From: Escherichia coli
Lineage (GTDB): Bacteria > Pseudomonadota > Gammaproteobacteria > Enterobacterales > Enterobacteriaceae
Length of the DNA: 64,000 nucleotides
Direction: 5' to 3' (one strand)
Assembly (NCBI RefSeq): GCF_022846255.1
Contig: NZ_AP025682.1
Shown here: one piece after another, positions 1 to 8,582 of the stretch
Numbering within the stretch: position 1 is the stretch's first letter
Layout: every line of letters starts with the position of its first letter
The notes under the pieces: model-generated
What the model was told of the DNA's origin: nothing
What the model saw: the letters and a program-made list of their open reading frames with translations, nothing else
The model's database searches: none
Made by a program: the position numbers and the translations under genes

Positions 1-1228
1 CGAGCCCGAAGCCAACCTGGCACTCATTTCTGTACCGGGAGACTACGCCGCCGCCGAAGCAATTAAAGCGTTAAACCTCGGAATGAACGTGATGATGTTC
101 AGCGATAACGTCAGTATCGTGCAGGAAAAATCCATCAAAACGCTTGCCCGAGAACGTCAGCGCATCGTAATGGGACCTGACTGTGGAACCGCCATTGTTA
201 ACGGCATTCCGTTAGGCTTCGCTAATGTGGTGAAACGCGGAGCAATTGGTGTTATTGGCGCGTCAGGCACCGGGCTACAGGAAGTGACTTGCCGAATCGA
301 CCAGCTCGGAGCGGGTATTTCTCAGGCGTTGGGAACAGGCGGACATGATCTCAGTGAAGAGATTGGTGGAATATCGATGCTCTTCGCTTTAGATGCGCTG
401 GCGCAAGACGATGAAACTCGCGTGATTGTGCTTATTTCAAAACCGCCTTCACCGATCGTTGCCCGGACTATTCTGGAGCGTGCCGAGGCTTGTGGAAAAC
501 CCGTGGTGGTGAATTTCCTCGGTGCGAATCCGCATGATCTGGCACGTCCCAATATCACCGCGGCCACCACACTTGCCAGCGCCGCAAATATCGCCGTGGC
601 GTTACTGAATGATCAACCACTTCCGACTATCGAGACCGAAATTTCCTGCGACGATCTCACAATGTTACAAAACGCCTGCCAGCGCCTGCCAGCCCATCGC
701 CAGGCGATACGCGGTGTTTTCGCCGGAGGAACCTTCTGCTACGAAGCGCAACTTATCTGCCAACAAAAGGGATTCATCGCAGCCTCCAATACGCCAGTTG
801 CGGGTAATCGTGCTCTGGCAAATATCTGGCAAATCGAAGATCACACGTTGATCGATATGGGCGACGATGATTTCACCCGTGGCAAACCGCATCCAATGAT
901 CGACCCGACTCTGCGCAATCAACGTCTGCTCAACGAACTCAACGACTCACACACTGCCGTCGTGTTATTCGACCTGGTACTTGGTTATGGCGCTTCCACG
1001 ACGCCTGCCAGCGAATTACTGGACCAACTTTCACACATCGACATGAATAACGCACCGTTGCTGATTGCGCACGTTTGCGGAACGGAAGCTGATCCGCAAA
1101 TACGCAGTCAGCAGATAAGCGCACTACAAAATGCAGGGGTCATCATCGCCAGCAGCAATGCACAGGCGGCGCTATGGGCCAGCACCGTTGCACAGACTCA
1201 GTTGCAGAAAAAGGGGCTAAACGCATGA
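1..1228 (+). CDS. FdrA-like protein (CoA-binding, NDP-forming acyl-CoA synthetase-like), 5'-truncated by window edge
   Basis: ORF 83..1228 stays open in frame back to position 2; Gly-rich GxIGxSGTG motif; stop overlaps next start (ATGA at 1225-1228). Confidence 0.65.
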   Translation, partial: EPEANLALISVPGDYAAAEAIKALNLGMNVMMFSDNVSIVQEKSIKTLARERQRIVMGPDCGTAIVNGIPLGFANVVKRGAIGVIGASGTGLQEVTCRIDQLGAGISQALGTGGHDLSEEIGGISMLFALDALAQDDETRVIVLISKPPSPIVARTILERAEACGKPVVVNFLGANPHDLARPNITAATTLASAANIAVALLNDQPLPTIETEISCDDLTMLQNACQRLPAHRQAIRGVFAGGTFCYEAQLICQQKGFIAASNTPVAGNRALANIWQIEDHTLIDMGDDDFTRGKPHPMIDPTLRNQRLLNELNDSHTAVVLFDLVLGYGASTTPASELLDQLSHIDMNNAPLLIAHVCGTEADPQIRSQQISALQNAGVIIASSNAQAALWASTVAQTQLQKKGLNA

Positions 1229-2649
1229 ATACCTTATTTAATCAGCCTTTGAAGGTCGTGAACGCGGGACTACACAGTTTTGCTGACAATATTCAACATG
1301 CCGGGGGAAGCGCAATTGCACTCAACTGGCAGCCACCAGCACAAGGCGATATTGACGCTGGATTGGATCTGGCATCGTTGCTACGTCATCCCCTGGTAGA
1401 AAATGCCAACCAAATCGCCATGACACGTTATCTCGAAGCACAGCCCGTGCTGGTGGATGTCATGCTCGCTAAAGAGGCCATTCCAGCAATGGCTGAACAA
1501 AAACGTATTTTGCACTCTGGCCCGCCGATTGCCTGGGAAGAGATGTGTGGTCCGGTAAAAGGGGCGATTATTGGTGCCATGCTGTACGAAGGTTGGGCCA
1601 CCAGCCAGCAAGACGCTGAAAACCAAATAAACGCAGGCGAAATCGACCTTGCCCCTTGTCATCATTATCACGCGGTTGGCCCAATGGCAGGCATCATCAG
1701 CCCGTCGATGCCGTTATGGGTGGTAGAAAACAAAACCAACGGCCATCGTACTTTTAGCAATTTCAATGAAGGGCTGGGTAAGGTTCTCCGTTTTGGCGCC
1801 AATAACGATGAAGTTCTCAATCGTCTGGCCTGGATGCGCGATGAACTGGCGCCGGCAATGAAAGCAGCAATCGCACAACACGGCGAGCTGGAACTCAAGC
1901 CATTAATGGCGCAGGCGCTGCATATGGGGGATGAAGTTCATAACCGCAATGCTGCCGCTACCGGTTTGCTGATTAAGCGCCTGCTCCCGGCATTGCTGGC
2001 CTGCTCTCTTCCACAGGAACATATCCAGCGCGTCGTGGCATTTATCACCGGTAACGATCACTTCTTCCTCAATCTTTCGATGGCCGCCTGTAAAGCAATG
2101 ATGGATGCCGCCGCCAATGTACCGTTCAGTTCAATGGTTACGGTGATGGCGCGTAACGGGGTGAATTTTGGTATTCGGCTTTCCGGTACTGGCGATCGCT
2201 GGTTCCAGGCTCCTGCCAATGCCGTTGAAGGTCTGTTCTTCCCCGGATTTGGCGTCGACGATGCCGCTGCTGACCTGGGTGATAGCGCAATTACTGAAAC
2301 CGCAGGTGTGGGTGGCTTCGCGATGGCGTCATCTCCAGCGATCGTCAAATTTGTGGGAGGCACCCCTGCCGATGCCACCAATAACAGCCGTAGGATGCAA
2401 GCAATCACCCTCGGTGGTAACCCCGCATTTACACTTCCTGCCCTCAATTTTGCCCCCACCGCAGCAGGGATTGATGCGCGTAAAGTGACCGATCGCGGCA
2501 TTTTACCGGTCATCAATACGGGTATCGCCCACAAACAAGCGGGGGTCGGGCAAATTGGTGCCGGGATCACCACTGCGCCGATGGCCTGTTTTGTCGCCGC
2601 TGTACGTGCACTGGCGGAGATCGTCGCAAAGGAGAACCATCATGGTTAA
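1225..2649 (+). CDS. DUF1116 family protein (YlbE/YahG-like)
   Basis: ATG at 1225 preceded by AAAAAGGGG; ORF-track product resembles E. coli YahG/YlbE; translationally coupled to neighbours. Confidence 0.7.
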   Translation: MNTLFNQPLKVVNAGLHSFADNIQHAGGSAIALNWQPPAQGDIDAGLDLASLLRHPLVENANQIAMTRYLEAQPVLVDVMLAKEAIPAMAEQKRILHSGPPIAWEEMCGPVKGAIIGAMLYEGWATSQQDAENQINAGEIDLAPCHHYHAVGPMAGIISPSMPLWVVENKTNGHRTFSNFNEGLGKVLRFGANNDEVLNRLAWMRDELAPAMKAAIAQHGELELKPLMAQALHMGDEVHNRNAAATGLLIKRLLPALLACSLPQEHIQRVVAFITGNDHFFLNLSMAACKAMMDAAANVPFSSMVTVMARNGVNFGIRLSGTGDRWFQAPANAVEGLFFPGFGVDDAAADLGDSAITETAGVGGFAMASSPAIVKFVGGTPADATNNSRRMQAITLGGNPAFTLPALNFAPTAAGIDARKVTDRGILPVINTGIAHKQAGVGQIGAGITTAPMACFVAAVRALAEIVAKENHHG

Positions 2650-3598
2650 GCCACTGGCTGTCGTCGCGGTTGGCGGCAATGCGCTCATTCAGGACGAGCA
2701 ACGCAATAGTATTCCCGATCAATATGTTGCAGTGATGGAAAGCGTGCAACATATCGTTGATATGGTTGAAGCCGGATGGGACCTGGTACTAACCCACGGT
2801 AATGGCCCGCAGGTGGGCTTTATTCTGCGCCGCTCTGAACTCGCCAGTAACGAAGTTTCTCCGGTTCCACTTGATTACGCCGTGGGTGATACACAAGGTG
2901 CAATTGGCTACATGTTCCAGAAAGCGCTGCATAACGAATTGGCTCGCCGTGGCATAAACAAACCGGTAATTGCCCTGGTGACACAAACGCGAGTCAGCCC
3001 ACATGACGATGCTTTCGCCAGCCCCAGTAAACCAATTGGCGCGTTTCTCGATGAAGCAACGGCCCAACAACGCCAACAACAACTCGGCTGGACGCTGATG
3101 GAGGACGCCGGGCGTGGTTGGCGGCGTACAGTTCCCTCTCCTGCACCACTGGAAATTATTGAGCACGACACCATCGCTCACCTGGTGCGCCAGGGATATC
3201 TGGTTATTGCCTGCGGCGGCGGCGGTATTCCGGTGGTGCGAGACGGGCAACAACTGAAAGGTGTGGAAGCCGTGATCGATAAAGATCTGGCCTCCGCGCT
3301 GCTCGCCAGTCAGTTAGGCGCAGATCTGCTGGTGATCCCCACCGGTGTAGAAAAAGTAGCGATTAACTTTGGTACACCACAACAACAGTGGCTCGACGCT
3401 ATCAGCGTTGCCGAAGCGCAAACGCTGTTGCGGGAAGGTCAGTTTGGTGTCGGCAGTATGCAACCCAAAGTGGAAGCCATTGTTGATTTCATCAATGCCA
3501 GCCAGCAACAAGGCAAACAGGCCAGCGGCCTGATTACTTCACCGCAAACCATAAAAGCAGCCCTGGCGCATCAGAGCGGTACATGGATAACCCTTTAA
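2642..3598 (+). CDS. carbamate kinase (ArcC/YahI/YqeA-like paralog)
   Basis: MVKPLAVVAVGGNALI N-terminus, THGNGPQVG and CGGGGIPVV motifs typical of carbamate kinase; ATG 2642 overlaps upstream stop by 8 nt. Confidence 0.85.
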   Translation: MVKPLAVVAVGGNALIQDEQRNSIPDQYVAVMESVQHIVDMVEAGWDLVLTHGNGPQVGFILRRSELASNEVSPVPLDYAVGDTQGAIGYMFQKALHNELARRGINKPVIALVTQTRVSPHDDAFASPSKPIGAFLDEATAQQRQQQLGWTLMEDAGRGWRRTVPSPAPLEIIEHDTIAHLVRQGYLVIACGGGGIPVVRDGQQLKGVEAVIDKDLASALLASQLGADLLVIPTGVEKVAINFGTPQQQWLDAISVAEAQTLLREGQFGVGSMQPKVEAIVDFINASQQQGKQASGLITSPQTIKAALAHQSGTWITL

Positions 3599-3614
3599 TT
3601 CTCTGGAGAACACA

Positions 3615-4004
3615 ATGACTACAACGCTTTTAGCCGTTAACGGAACGCTGATGCGCGGCCTGGAACTCAACCCAAATATGCAAAAAGCGGGCGGTATTTT
3701 TGTCCGTGAAGACCGAACTGACGCCCATTACCGGTTGTGGAGTATTAATGATCGCCATCCGGGAATGATTCGCGTGAATGAAGGAGGAACACACGTCGAC
3801 GTAGAAATTTGGCAATTACCGCTGGCCAGTTTTGCCGCTCTGTTAATGAGCGAACCCGCTGGGCTGGCAATTGGCAAAATCAAACTTGCCGATGGTAGCG
3901 AAGTGCTGGGCGTACTGGCAGAAAACTGGCTGACCGAAGGCCAACGGGAAATTACAGAACTGGGTAGCTGGCGCAAATACACCGGGCATTTTCATACTGT
4001 GTAA
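3615..4004 (+). CDS. small hypothetical protein, possibly gamma-glutamyl-cyclotransferase-like fold
   Basis: 129-aa ORF with GGAGA Shine-Dalgarno 8 nt upstream; weak resemblance to AIG2/GGCT-like N-terminus; in operon context. Confidence 0.45.
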   Translation: MTTTLLAVNGTLMRGLELNPNMQKAGGIFVREDRTDAHYRLWSINDRHPGMIRVNEGGTHVDVEIWQLPLASFAALLMSEPAGLAIGKIKLADGSEVLGVLAENWLTEGQREITELGSWRKYTGHFHTV

Positions 4005-4029
4005 CGCGCATTTATAAAGGGAACATACT

Positions 4030-5253
4030 ATGCGTAAAAAAGAAGAGAATCTGAATACGGCATCAGGATTGCGTATTGCCATGATTTTGCTGGGTATTGC
4101 CGTCACACCTGTGCTGTTGTCATCCTCAAGCCTCGGCAATCAACTTTCCAGCGGCAGTTTAATTAGCGTCGTATTGTTAGGCGGCGTCATTCTGACCTTA
4201 CTTTCAGCCATCACCATTAGCGTGGGAGAAAAAGCCCGCCTGCCAACGTATGGCATTGTGAAATATTCGTTTGGCGAAAAAGGGGCCATCGCCATTAACA
4301 TTTTGATGGCGATAAGTCTGTTCGGCTGGATTGCCGTTACCGCCAATATGTTTGGTCATTCGGTACATGACTTACTGGCTCAACATGGACTGGAAGTTCC
4401 ACTGGCACTGTTAGTGGCGGCTGGCTGTGTCATTTTTGTCGCCTCTACGGCATTTGGCTTTGCCGTTCTGGGAAAAATTGCCCAGGTTGCCGTGCCGGTT
4501 ATCGCGCTGGTGCTGTGTTACATCCTCTATGTGGCAACCCATACCGAAGTGGCAGTACCAGCGGCGATTGTGGAGATGAATACAGGTGTCGCCGTTTCCA
4601 CCGTTGTTGGCACCATTATTGTGCTGGTTGCCACACTGCCTGATTTCGGTAGTTTTGTGCATAACCGCAAACATGCGCTGATTGCCGCAGGCGTGACGTT
4701 TCTGGTTGCCTACCCTCTGCTCTACTGGGCGGGTGCAACGCCGAGCGCCATTAGTGGTCAGGGATCTTTACTGGGTGCGATGGCGGTATTCGGTGCGGTT
4801 CTGCCTGCGGCGCTGTTGTTGATTTTCGCCTGCGTCACCGGTAACGCGGGCAATATGTTCCAGGGCACGCTGGTGGTTTCCACACTGCTTACCCGCTTTC
4901 CCAAATGGCAGATTACCGTGGCGCTGGGTATCCTTTCCGCCATCGTAGGCAGTATGGATATTATGGCGTGGTTTATTCCGTTTCTGCTGTTCCTGGGTAT
5001 CGCCACGCCACCCGTTGCCGGAATTTATATCGCTGACTTTTTCCTTTATCGCCGTAATGGCTATCAAGAGTCAGTGTTAGCCCAGGAGTCACAGATTAAA
5101 GTGCTGACATTCGCAGCATGGATCATAGGCGCAGCGGTTGGCTTTATGACCGTAAAAGGCTTATTCACCCTGACGACGATCCCTTCGGTAGACTCGATTC
5201 TGGTGGCATGTATCGCGTATGCGATTCTCAGTCGGGCAAGTCAACACCGCTAA
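4030..5253 (+). CDS. NCS1-family permease (cytosine/purine/allantoin permease-like)
   Basis: 407-aa polytopic membrane protein with CodB-like sequence; AAGGGA Shine-Dalgarno. Confidence 0.75.
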   Translation: MRKKEENLNTASGLRIAMILLGIAVTPVLLSSSSLGNQLSSGSLISVVLLGGVILTLLSAITISVGEKARLPTYGIVKYSFGEKGAIAINILMAISLFGWIAVTANMFGHSVHDLLAQHGLEVPLALLVAAGCVIFVASTAFGFAVLGKIAQVAVPVIALVLCYILYVATHTEVAVPAAIVEMNTGVAVSTVVGTIIVLVATLPDFGSFVHNRKHALIAAGVTFLVAYPLLYWAGATPSAISGQGSLLGAMAVFGAVLPAALLLIFACVTGNAGNMFQGTLVVSTLLTRFPKWQITVALGILSAIVGSMDIMAWFIPFLLFLGIATPPVAGIYIADFFLYRRNGYQESVLAQESQIKVLTFAAWIIGAAVGFMTVKGLFTLTTIPSVDSILVACIAYAILSRASQHR

Positions 5254-5330
5254 TTCCTGGGTATACTCAGGCAATGATTACGGCTGAATCTGGAGAGATT
5301 CAGCCACTTTACCACTGACCAGGGAGCCTT

Positions 5331-6227
5331 ATGTTCATCTCAGACGAAACGCTTCGTGTTATTCATCTGGTCGCCAGACACCAGAGCATTACCACCGCAG
5401 CCGAGCAGTTAAATAAAGTCCCTTCCGCCATCAGTTACACCATCAAGAAAGCGGAAGAGAGCCTGGGCGTTGAACTGTTCATTCGTAAGGGACGCTATAT
5501 TGAATTATCGCCAGCGGGAAGTTACTTCATCGAACATAGCAAAACTATTCTTGGCGACCTGGAAGCATTAAAGCGCAACACAGTGCTGATTCACGATGGT
5601 ATTGAGCGTGAACTGACAATAGCGGTAAACAATATTATTCCTGGTGATTTGCTGGTGGCATTTATTCGAGATTTTGAACGGCAATTCACATCAACAACAC
5701 TGACGGTAGATCTTGAGGTATACAACGGCTGCTGGGATGCGCTGTACAGTAAGCGTGCTGATCTGGTCTACGGTGCTCCTCATGCAGTACCAAGCAGTGA
5801 AGGCATCATTAGCGAACCGGTCGGACAAATGGAATGGGATTTTGTCGTCAGCCCACTCCACCCACTGGCAGCGAAGCGGCATCCATTAGAAAACAGTGAA
5901 TTGCGTCATTATCCAGCGGTTTGTATCCGCGATACCTCCGTTAACTTCCCCCCGATGCAAGCCTGGTTGTTGGAAGGACAAAAACCCATTTTTGTTCCTG
6001 ACTTCGCTACGGCAATCGCCTTAATAGAACAAAACGTCGGTATTGGTTATATTCCACATCATCTGGCATTGCCGTTATTGAACAGCGGTAAATTGCTTAA
6101 AAAGCCAATGCGCGAACATAAACACGCCACCAAGTTATTTCTTGCCGCTCGTTCCGATGGTATGGGCAAAGCCTGTCAGTGGTGCATAGAATATTTAAGA
6201 AATCCGCAATTAATTTTCTGTTCCTGA
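5331..6227 (+). CDS. LysR-family transcriptional regulator
   Basis: N-terminal helix-turn-helix (ITTAAEQLNKVPSAISYTIKKAEESLGVELF) and LysR substrate-binding domain length. Confidence 0.85.
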   Translation: MFISDETLRVIHLVARHQSITTAAEQLNKVPSAISYTIKKAEESLGVELFIRKGRYIELSPAGSYFIEHSKTILGDLEALKRNTVLIHDGIERELTIAVNNIIPGDLLVAFIRDFERQFTSTTLTVDLEVYNGCWDALYSKRADLVYGAPHAVPSSEGIISEPVGQMEWDFVVSPLHPLAAKRHPLENSELRHYPAVCIRDTSVNFPPMQAWLLEGQKPIFVPDFATAIALIEQNVGIGYIPHHLALPLLNSGKLLKKPMREHKHATKLFLAARSDGMGKACQWCIEYLRNPQLIFCS

Positions 6228-6256
6228 AGATCCACATCATACCTGGCATACATAGC

Positions 6257-6286
6257 AAAATGGCTTCCGGTGTTGGAAGCCATTAT
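6257..6286. terminator. bidirectional hairpin between LysR gene and metE 3' ends
   Basis: 10-bp perfect inverted repeat AATGGCTTCC / GGAAGCCATT with 6-nt loop, A-run on one side and T-rich on the other. Confidence 0.45.
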
Positions 6287-6320
6287 TGTGCTGCAATTTA
6301 CAATGACTCGTTAATACTCA

Positions 6321-8582
6321 TCATCCCCGACGCAAATTCTGCGCCGCCTGCACCATGTTCGCCAGTGCCGCGCGGGTTTCTGGCCAGCCGCGCGTTTTCA
6401 GGCCACAGTCCGGGTTGACCCACAGACGCTCTGCCGGAATGCGTTTTGCCGCTTTCTTCAGCAAGGCTTCAATCCATTCCACGCTCGGTACGTTTGGCGA
6501 GTGAATGTCATAGACGCCAGGACCGATTTCATTTGGATAATCAAACTCTTCAAACGACTCCAGCAACTCCATGTCGGAACGCGAGGTTTCGATGGTGATG
6601 ACGTCTGCGTCCAGCGCCGCAATCGAATCCATGATGTCGTTGAACTCGCAGTAACACATGTGAGTGTGGATTTGTGTGTCATCTTTCGCCACGGCGGCGT
6701 TGATACGGAAAGCCTCCACGCCCCACTGGAGATAGGCATCCCAGTCGCTGCGACGCAGTGGTAAACCTTCGCGCAATGCCGGTTCGTCAATCTGAATGAT
6801 GCCAATTCCAGCGGCTTCCAGGTCCGCCACTTCATCACGCAGCGCCAGCGCAATTTGTTTGGCGATGGTTTCACGGCTGACATCTTCACGCGGGAACGAC
6901 CAGCAGAGAATAGTCACCGGGCCGGTCAACATCCCTTTCACCGGTTTATCAGTCAGGGATTGCGCATATTTTGCCCACTCCACGGTAATCGGTGCCGGGC
7001 GGCTAACGTCACCAATAACAATCGGTGGCTTCACGCAGCGGGAACCGTAGCTCTGTACCCAACCGTTTTGCGTAAAGACAAAGCCATCCAGATGCTCGCC
7101 AAAGTATTCCACCATGTCATTACGCTCGGCCTCGCCATGTACCAGCACATCCAGTCCCAAACGTTCCTGCTCAACAATGGCCTGCTTGATATGTTCCGCA
7201 ATGCCCGTGCGGTAGTTATTGGCGTCGAGATTACCCTTTTTGAAATCCAGACGCAGGGTACGAATCTCCGTGGTTTGCGGGAAGGAACCAATCGTGGTGG
7301 TCGGCCACGCGGGCAGTTTAAAACGCGCACGCTGGGCTTCAGCACGCACTTCATAGACATTCGCACGCTGACTGTCCTGAGCGGTGATCGCCGCCAGACG
7401 CTTTTCTACTGCCGGATTATGTACACGAGTAGAGTGACGACGCGCCTGAATCGGAGCGCTCCACTCTGCCAGAGCTGCCGTATCACCACTGTTCAGCGTA
7501 TCGCGCAGCAATGCCAGTTCATGACATTTTTGCAGGGCGAAGGCAAACCAGCTTTTCACTTCTGCATCAAGACGCGTTTCCACGCTCAGGTCGATGGGGC
7601 TGTGCAGCAACGAGCAGGAAGATGCCACCCACAAATCGCGTTTGCCGACAATGTCCTTAATTTGCGCATATTTCTCGGTAAGATCGGCGCGCCAGACGTT
7701 ACGACCATTGATAAGACCCGCAGACAGCAGCCAGTCAGAAGGCAGACGCTTGTGCAGTTCAGCAACGTCATCTTTACCATGTACGAGATCGACATGCAGA
7801 CCCTGAACAGGCAGCGCAGTAATCGTGTCGAGGTTTGGCGTTACGCCTTCAAAATAGGTAGTCAGCAGCAGTTTCACCTGCCCCTGCAGAGCATCGTAAG
7901 CGGGTTTGTACGCATCCAGCCACGCCTGCGGCAGTTCCAGAACCAGCGCGGGTTCATCAATCTGTACCCACTCGATGCCGCGTTTTGCCAGTTCTGCCAG
8001 CACTTGCTGATAAACCGGCAGAATGTCGTTCAGCAGGCTCAGGCGATCAAACTGTTCACCTTTCACTTTACCCAGCCACAGGTAGGTAACCGGCCCCAGC
8101 AGCACAGGTTTCACCTTGTGGCCCAGCGCCAGCGCCTCGTCCACTTCCTCCAGCAGCTGCGTCCAGGTCAGTTTGAACTGTTGGCCTTTAACGAACTCCG
8201 GCACCATGTAGTGATAGTTGGTGTTAAACCATTTGGTCATTTCCGCTGCCGCCGCAGGTTCGCCAGTCGGTGCACGTCCACGACCAATACGGAACAGGGT
8301 GTCGATATCTACCGAACCATCTTTGTTCTGGTGACGCGCCGGAACGTTACCCAGCAGCAGGCTGGTGGTCAGGACATGATCGTACCAGGCAAAATCACCC
8401 ACCGGCAGCAGGTCGATACCTGCTTGCTTTTGTTGATCCCAGTGACGAGCACGCAGTTCACGCCCTACCGCCAGCAGTTCTTCACGCGTGGAGTTCCCCG
8501 CCCAATAACTCTCTTGCGCTTTTTTCAGCTCGCGACGCAGGCCAACGCGAGGGAAACCGAGGGTGTGATTAAGAATTGTCAT
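6321..8582 (-). CDS. metE: cobalamin-independent methionine synthase
   Basis: 753-aa product matching E. coli MetE ([29 protein letters not shown]...). Confidence 0.97.

Follow-up and report, generated by a model that had tools for sequence, protein, structure and literature searches.

The 77-nt gap between an NCS1 permease gene and the co-directional LysR gene behind it, in an accessory island of Escherichia coli, holds a hairpin that selection maintains as an RNA stem-loop, and the position of this stem-loop at the gene junction is conserved. Judged by comparison between genera, there is about an even chance that it is a terminator-derived stem-loop that forms the boundary between the operon transcript and the regulator gene. 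The window analysed is a 64,000-nt stretch of contig NZ_AP025682.1. The palindrome GGCTGAATC-TGGAGA-GATTCAGCC was found at positions 5282–5305 of the window, where an earlier note on this DNA had placed it. That note described a perfect 9-bp stem. The stem is perfect, but its actual length is 10 bp (GGCTGAATCT/AGATTCAGCC) because the flanking T5291 and A5296 pair as well, and the loop is the 4-nt GGAG. The permease stop codon lies at 5251–5253 and the LysR ATG at 5331–5333, both in agreement with the RefSeq calls on identical DNA, which confirms the spacing given in the note: the hairpin begins 29 nt past the permease stop and ends 26 nt short of the LysR start. The features of the junction and its flanking genes are the following.

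4030–5253, + strand: NCS1-family 'cytosine permease' gene, the last structural gene of the island operon, as seen from synteny.
5254–5260, + strand: UUCCUGG directly after the permease stop, a candidate anti-SD sequence complementary to the lysR SD region, present in read-through RNA only.
5262–5267, + strand: -10-like hexamer TATACT (TATAAT in most other genera) with GGG before it and the hairpin 14 nt further on, a candidate lysR promoter element.
5273–5278, + strand: AATGAT, a putative further -10-like hexamer of weaker match immediately ahead of the stem, read from the alignment; Buttiauxella, Rahnella and Serratia have CATAAT.
5282–5305, + strand: RNA stem-loop with arms GGCUGAAUCU/AGAUUCAGCC and a GGAG loop, from folding and covariation.
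5306–5318, + strand: pyrimidine-rich, G-poor tail ACTTTACCACTGA in place of a U-tract, from the sequence and the alignment.
5319–5326, + strand: lysR ribosome-binding region CCAGGGAG, with the SD GGGAG at 5322–5326, 4 nt before the ATG.
5331–6227, + strand: LysR-type regulator gene, from the gene calls.

The hairpin has a folding energy of −15.7 kcal/mol, and with five G–C pairs the stem is stable enough for an intrinsic terminator. At an eleventh pair (5281/5306) this window has C·A, where strain E69 and most other genera have C–G. Perfect hairpins of at least 10 bp are a common feature of intergenic DNA in the window: with loops of 3–10 nt allowed, nine were observed against 0.4 expected from dinucleotide shuffles of the window. 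Judged by their sequence, the remaining ones are presumably terminator- or REP-like for the most part. For one 77-nt gap, the chance expectation is roughly 5 × 10⁻⁴ such hairpins. The sequence of the present hairpin is single-copy, occurring once in the window and once per island copy across 1555 genomes. The reading as a dispersed repeat or REP element was therefore rejected, and the covariance model described below matches this junction alone. An Rfam 15 scan of positions 4500–6500 at a permissive E-value returned nothing at the hairpin and two chance-level hits elsewhere. Two further candidates were rejected. When the sequence is read, a sigma-54 promoter in the loop and 3′ arm (TGG...GC) falls one base short of GG-N10-GC. 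A small leader ORF of 14 codons (ATG 5275 to TGA 5317–5319) has no ATG in Citrobacter, where AAC or ATC is found.

The island is inserted between ysgA and metE and was found in 1555 of 5426 complete E. coli genomes (~29%). Carriers include BL21(DE3), CFT073 and APEC plasmids, and the plasmid matches (n = 125) come mostly from avian and other E. coli. All eight island genes share one strand, in the order cysteine hydrolase, DUF2877 protein, FdrA, DUF1116 (YlbE-like) protein, carbamate kinase, a 129-aa 'allophanate hydrolase-related' protein, NCS1 'cytosine permease' and LysR-type regulator. The fdrA, DUF1116, DUF2877 and carbamate kinase genes resemble the fdrA-ylbE-ylbF-ybcF set of the allantoin pathway, and in the island this set is joined to a RutB-like cysteine hydrolase gene, the NCS1 permease gene and the LysR gene. 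The window opens inside the island (window 1–6300), which extends upstream of it and corresponds to L001 541–8728. The island is the 'GR 29 metE..ysgA' region of ExPEC and APEC strains, for which a role in nitrogen acquisition was guessed (PMC12928451).

K-12 is without the island and has a different bidirectional terminator at ysgA–metE. A second perfect hairpin, of 10 bp (AATGGCTTCC-GGTGTT-GGAAGCCATT), lies at window 6259–6284, where lysR and metE converge with their 3′ ends. This hairpin belongs to the island and stands in place of the K-12 bidirectional terminator (AAGACCGGGTGG...CCACCCGGTTT); towards metE it is flanked by TTTGCT, and towards lysR a strong T-run is missing. The plasmid copy of the island, ~94.5% identical, resides on conjugative plasmids whose hosts are chiefly avian E. 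coli. In plasmid p1 of E. coli 64.1, the island copy is accompanied at a distance of ~7 kb by another cluster of distant relatedness (L003 20000–24201), made up of a divergent LysR gene and the genes for an ankyrin-repeat protein, DUF2877 and FdrA at 43% identity.

Of the E. coli records, 1615 of 1617 have the same 34 nt around the hairpin, and BL21(DE3), CFT073 and Nissle-type strains have the identical sequence; in BL21(DE3) the hairpin occupies NC_012971.2 3909197–3909220 on the minus strand. Between the chromosomal and the plasmid copy, third codon positions have diverged by 17% in the permease gene and by 12% in lysR, whereas none of the 77 gap positions differs; the gap as a whole is therefore either constrained or recently homogenised. 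Another gap of the island, the 94 nt between DUF2877 and fdrA (L001 2076–2169, just upstream of the window), differs between the two copies at 2 of 94 positions, far below third-codon divergence, and contains two short hairpins (GTAGCCC-GTTTAT-GGGGCTAC and GCCCGA-N11-TCGGGC). The urine isolate E. coli CFE299 has a 9-nt deletion, TAATTCCTG (L002 3051–3070, corresponding to window 5251–5259), which takes out the permease stop and the candidate anti-SD. Its permease is longer, the gap is 53 nt, the hairpin is intact, and a MurR/RpiR regulator gene and tkt, not metE, stand behind lysR.

A search with the LysR protein gave 47 loci. The co-directional order of permease and then lysR occurs in Enterobacterales, Caballeronia, Paraburkholderia, Dyella and Silvimonas. 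The covariation set comprised 11 orthologous gaps from Escherichia, Citrobacter, Lelliottia, Edwardsiella and Buttiauxella. The hairpin is at the same place in all 11 with differing arm sequences (for example CGGCTGAACCC/GGGTTCAGCCG, GTGGTCTGGTTC/GAATCAGGCCAC and GTGGCTTAAC/GTTAAGCCAC), and RNAalifold predicts one common helix of 11 pairs for the alignment. Over the 11 stem pairs and 11 sequences, 95.9% of cells are paired, and both sides have changed in eight of the 11 pairs. None of 500 shuffles reached the observed paired fraction or covariation score, the structures scored having also included candidate flanking helices. When the partners were slid by 1–3 columns, only 22–57% of cells paired, again with the candidate flanking helices held in the control structures. 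G·U or U·G occupies six stem cells and C·A only one, at the helix end; such an asymmetry is expected from + strand RNA and not from a DNA palindrome. The eight double-sided changes and the six G·U cells thus show selection on the + strand RNA.

These counts rest on 11 sequences because Serratia was left out: MAFFT shifted the Serratia hairpin, and the covariance model scores Serratia weakly. The model built from the 11 sequences found no other match in 630 kb of related loci. An outer helix GGC(A)/(U)GCC around the hairpin, seen in single-sequence folds of most genera, was set aside; E. coli has ACC rather than GCC, and only 12.9% of its cells are paired in alignment A3, a figure that probably reflects a wrong choice of A3 columns. 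It is hardly credible that the palindrome arose by chance or is a relic without function. The E. coli copies alone would leave room for this, being too alike to inform, but the low chance expectation for one gap, the covariation over five genera and the identity of the gap between copies that differ at 12–17% of third codon positions all speak against it.

The G·U cells also bear on whether the element works as DNA. The earlier note had proposed, as one of its readings, a palindromic operator for the LysR protein, and a site for LysR (autoregulation) or for another dimeric transcription factor would indeed suit a perfect 24-bp palindrome near the lysR start. LysR-type regulators commonly autoregulate, and the 7-mer GCTGAAT is common to the hairpin and the region upstream of the operon, a coincidence at about chance level. 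We nevertheless consider an operator very unlikely. From genus to genus, most arm positions change (GGCTGAATCT, GTGGCTTAAC, GTGGTCTGGTTC, CTGCCAGC), whereas LysR residues 18–45, the helix-turn-helix, are almost invariant from E. coli to Rahnella; among the first 70 residues, 59–64 are shared from E. coli through Serratia and 53–55 in Rahnella. The six G·U cells break the symmetry of the DNA. The palindrome is of even length, with symmetric T/A at N8 and N16 and the motif ATC-N6-GAT, not T-N11-A. It shares with the T-N11-A boxes of LysR-type regulators a palindromic form and a place near the LysR gene, and differs from them in its spacing, its unconserved half-sites, its G·U pairs and a sequence unlike the operon promoter's candidate box.

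This box is of the ATCAAA-N3-TTTGAT type and occurs at the operon promoter in E. coli and in the Vibrio group alike. Upstream of the first E. coli island gene there are two motif copies of the type CATCAAAAAATTTGTTGCTG (L001 345–375 and 415–445, outside the window), the first of them within a 9-bp inverted repeat, CATACAGCA-N13-TGCTGTATG. The lysR–operon gaps of Vibrio, Photobacterium, Shewanella, Halomonas and Motilimonas contain ATCAAA-N3-TTTGAT-like boxes followed by CTCACTTTTTT. Going by sequence, the ATCAAA-N3-TTTGAT motif, which has T-N11-A geometry, is likely to be the LysR site together with the promoter that LysR activates. The operator proposal for the hairpin is thus unsupported, given arms that vary while the helix-turn-helix stays constant, the G·U cells, and a spacing and sequence unlike a T-N11-A box.

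The remark in the earlier note that no T-run follows the hairpin is borne out by the tail ACTTTACCAC, and a terminator scan gives no call. There are three T in the 8 nt after the stem (ACTTTACC), too few for the T-run of an intrinsic terminator, and a d'Aubenton-Carafa-type terminator score is about −37 (d) for the E. coli hairpin. Efficient intrinsic termination is therefore unlikely in E. coli. At the aligned tail position, Rahnella and Serratia microhaemolytica have TTTTTTT and other Serratia have TCTCCTCTC; of the Serratia tails, that of one species is TTTTTTCTTTT and those of three others are TCTCCTCTC. The series of tails from Serratia to E. coli looks like a decaying U-tract.

Stable hairpins after the permease stop are also present in Serratia, Rahnella, Silvimonas and Caballeronia, and they are not alignable with the E. 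coli hairpin. The junction hairpins of Rahnella, locus L042, Silvimonas and the Caballeronia locus L034 carry a T-run; in L021 the permease–lysR gap includes a T-run terminator, and a T-run hairpin is also present in the leader of the orphan S. microhaemolytica lysR (L017). The Rahnella rivi hairpin, with 13 pairs followed by TTTTTATGGC, is called terminator-like by the scan. In Vibrio, Photobacterium, Shewanella and Motilimonas, where lysR is upstream of the operon, the lysR leader has CATATAAT ~30 nt before the ATG and no hairpin. The hairpin therefore accompanies an operon in front of it and not lysR as such. At the loci L037–L046, from Vibrio, Photobacterium, Shewanella, Halomonas and Motilimonas, the orthologous lysR is upstream of the operon and co-directional with it, and no permease homolog was detected in ~13 kb per locus.

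The earlier note had also considered an RNA element that separates the operon and regulator transcripts, and this separation fits the covariation, the relatives with a T-run and the absence of the hairpin in the Vibrio group. In the boundary reading, the hairpin would form in RNA made from the + strand, at the end of the catabolic operon transcript that runs from the cysteine hydrolase to the NCS1 permease. It may descend from an ancestral intrinsic terminator whose U-tract decayed in the lineage of E. coli, Citrobacter, Edwardsiella and Buttiauxella. It could act as a weak or partial terminator for polymerases arriving from the operon, or as a barrier to 3′-to-5′ exonucleases. The mRNA of the structural genes would then end at the hairpin and thereby be stabilised. 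The regulator would be produced at a lower, largely independent level, by read-through and/or from its own weak promoter at TATACT (5262–5267). We infer both the termination or protection activity of the hairpin and the lysR promoter; our literature search found no usable paper with start-site or 3′-end data for uropathogenic strains or Nissle 1917.

Intrinsic terminators are known as internal attenuators of operons, such as T1 between rpsU and dnaG and the rplL–rpoB attenuator of E. coli. These likewise place a stable stem-loop after a highly expressed gene and before a gene that is needed at a low level. Relatives of the E. coli island have a canonical hairpin and T-run at the same junction, but the U-tract that defines the class is missing from the E. 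coli island hairpin. Intercistronic or 3′ stem-loops can also shield mRNA from 3′ exonucleases, as do the malE–malF REP hairpins and the hairpins of the Rhodobacter puf operon. Like the island hairpin, they have no U-tract, stand between a structural gene and a downstream gene, and conserve structure rather than sequence. Unlike the malE–malF hairpins, the island hairpin is single-copy and is not a REP element.

The distance from the hairpin to the lysR ATG is fixed at 23–25 nt, while the distance to the permease stop is not. Together with the fact that the hairpin stays with lysR in Serratia, this fits a role in the lysR leader equally well. A 5′-leader structure of the lysR mRNA, with a start a few nucleotides past TATACT and a leader of ~55 nt, is the chief alternative, albeit on balance a doubtful one. 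The stem-loop might stabilise the message against RNase E or tune translation; in a possible variant, its GGA-containing loop would be presented to CsrA together with the GGA of the SD. One point in favour is the nearly invariant TATAnT, 13–17 nt upstream of the stem. In alignment A2, T12, A13 and T14 of this hexamer are invariant and A15 and T17 nearly so, and G72, G73 and A75 of the lysR SD are invariant in alignments A2 and A3 (first-sequence numbering).

The -10-like element, the hairpin and the SD form a module at a constant distance to the ATG. This module remains attached to lysR where 50 nt have been inserted (Serratia Ag1), where the preceding gene is a different one (Serratia DD3) and where an orphan lysR stands beside a divergent cydA (S. 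microhaemolytica). In Serratia sp. DD3 (L026 4308–5912) an extra gene for a 534-aa membrane protein, nucleobase-permease-like by eye, lies between the NCS1 permease gene and lysR, and the -10 and hairpin module follows this gene. The boundary reading sits uneasily with a conserved -10 ahead of a terminator-like hairpin, except where transcription begins within the 5′ arm. Transcription from the second hexamer, AATGAT, would begin there, and a hairpin acting on read-through RNA might then leave lysR transcripts unaffected.

Several observations weigh against the leader structure. No convincing -35 was found, the -10 alone being conserved, and hence no full sigma-70 promoter was called in E. coli, Citrobacter or Buttiauxella. 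The lysR orthologs that lie upstream of the operon have a similar -10 and no hairpin, so LysR expression does not need the hairpin. The T-run on the hairpins of Rahnella and S. microhaemolytica would terminate such a leader. As for CsrA, the elements of such a site are present in E. coli as the loop GGAG and the SD GGGAG, but the loop has GGA in only five of 12 lineages (E. coli, Citrobacter On2M, two Buttiauxella and Citrobacter 18056) and is without it in the other seven. The closest known likeness is the ompA 5′ UTR, a 5′-terminal stabilising stem-loop reportedly studied by Emory, Bouvet and Belasco (1992). Shared with ompA-type hairpins is the position a short distance downstream of a conserved -10-like element. 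A few unpaired 5′ nucleotides are said to be tolerated in that type, and the island hairpin, if transcribed from TATACT, would start farther in, about 6–8 nt from the 5′ end. A further difference from that type is that the orthologs with lysR upstream of the operon have no hairpin.

The start of the gap suggests one more way to keep operon and regulator apart, at the level of translation. In read-through RNA, UUCCUGG (5254–5260) could pair with CCAGGGA (5319–5325), with the hairpin as a clamp, so that LysR translation would be confined to transcripts initiated downstream of the anti-SD. In the centroid fold this helix is present, with 5256–5260 paired to 5319–5323. Over the 11 sequences the anti-SD helix is 81.8% paired, and one pair has changed on both sides, from U–A to C–G in Edwardsiella; B. 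izardii has the same double change by eye. In most species, the SD is computed to be more accessible in the short transcript than in the read-through RNA. In E. coli, however, it is the same in both (0.28 against 0.31), and Serratia and Rahnella are without the complementarity. The core anti-SD pairs are invariant and hence uninformative. Both halves of the helix have other reasons to be conserved, the right half being the SD itself and the left half overlapping the sequence immediately ahead of the -10. In addition, CCWGG equals its own reverse complement, and apparent pairing is inflated as a result. We regard this pairing as improbable.

A composite of the three elements appears to be a comparably long shot. 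The 77-nt junction would be a three-part insulator, made up of the anti-SD, a promoter embedded before the terminator-derived hairpin, and the hairpin as clamp, and read-through RNA would be either truncated or silent for lysR. If this were true, only transcripts from the embedded promoter, without the anti-SD and possibly without part of the 5′ arm, would make LysR, and the level of the regulator would thereby be uncoupled from the operon that it activates.

The stake of the boundary reading is modest, and it introduces no new mechanism class; the hairpin is a new, previously undescribed instance of a familiar kind of element. A hairpin that is without its U-tract and yet maintained by covariation offers a test case for U-less hairpins at gene junctions. 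For E. coli, the element bears on how a regulator gene that lies behind its own operon avoids over-expression, in an accessory nitrogen-metabolism island.
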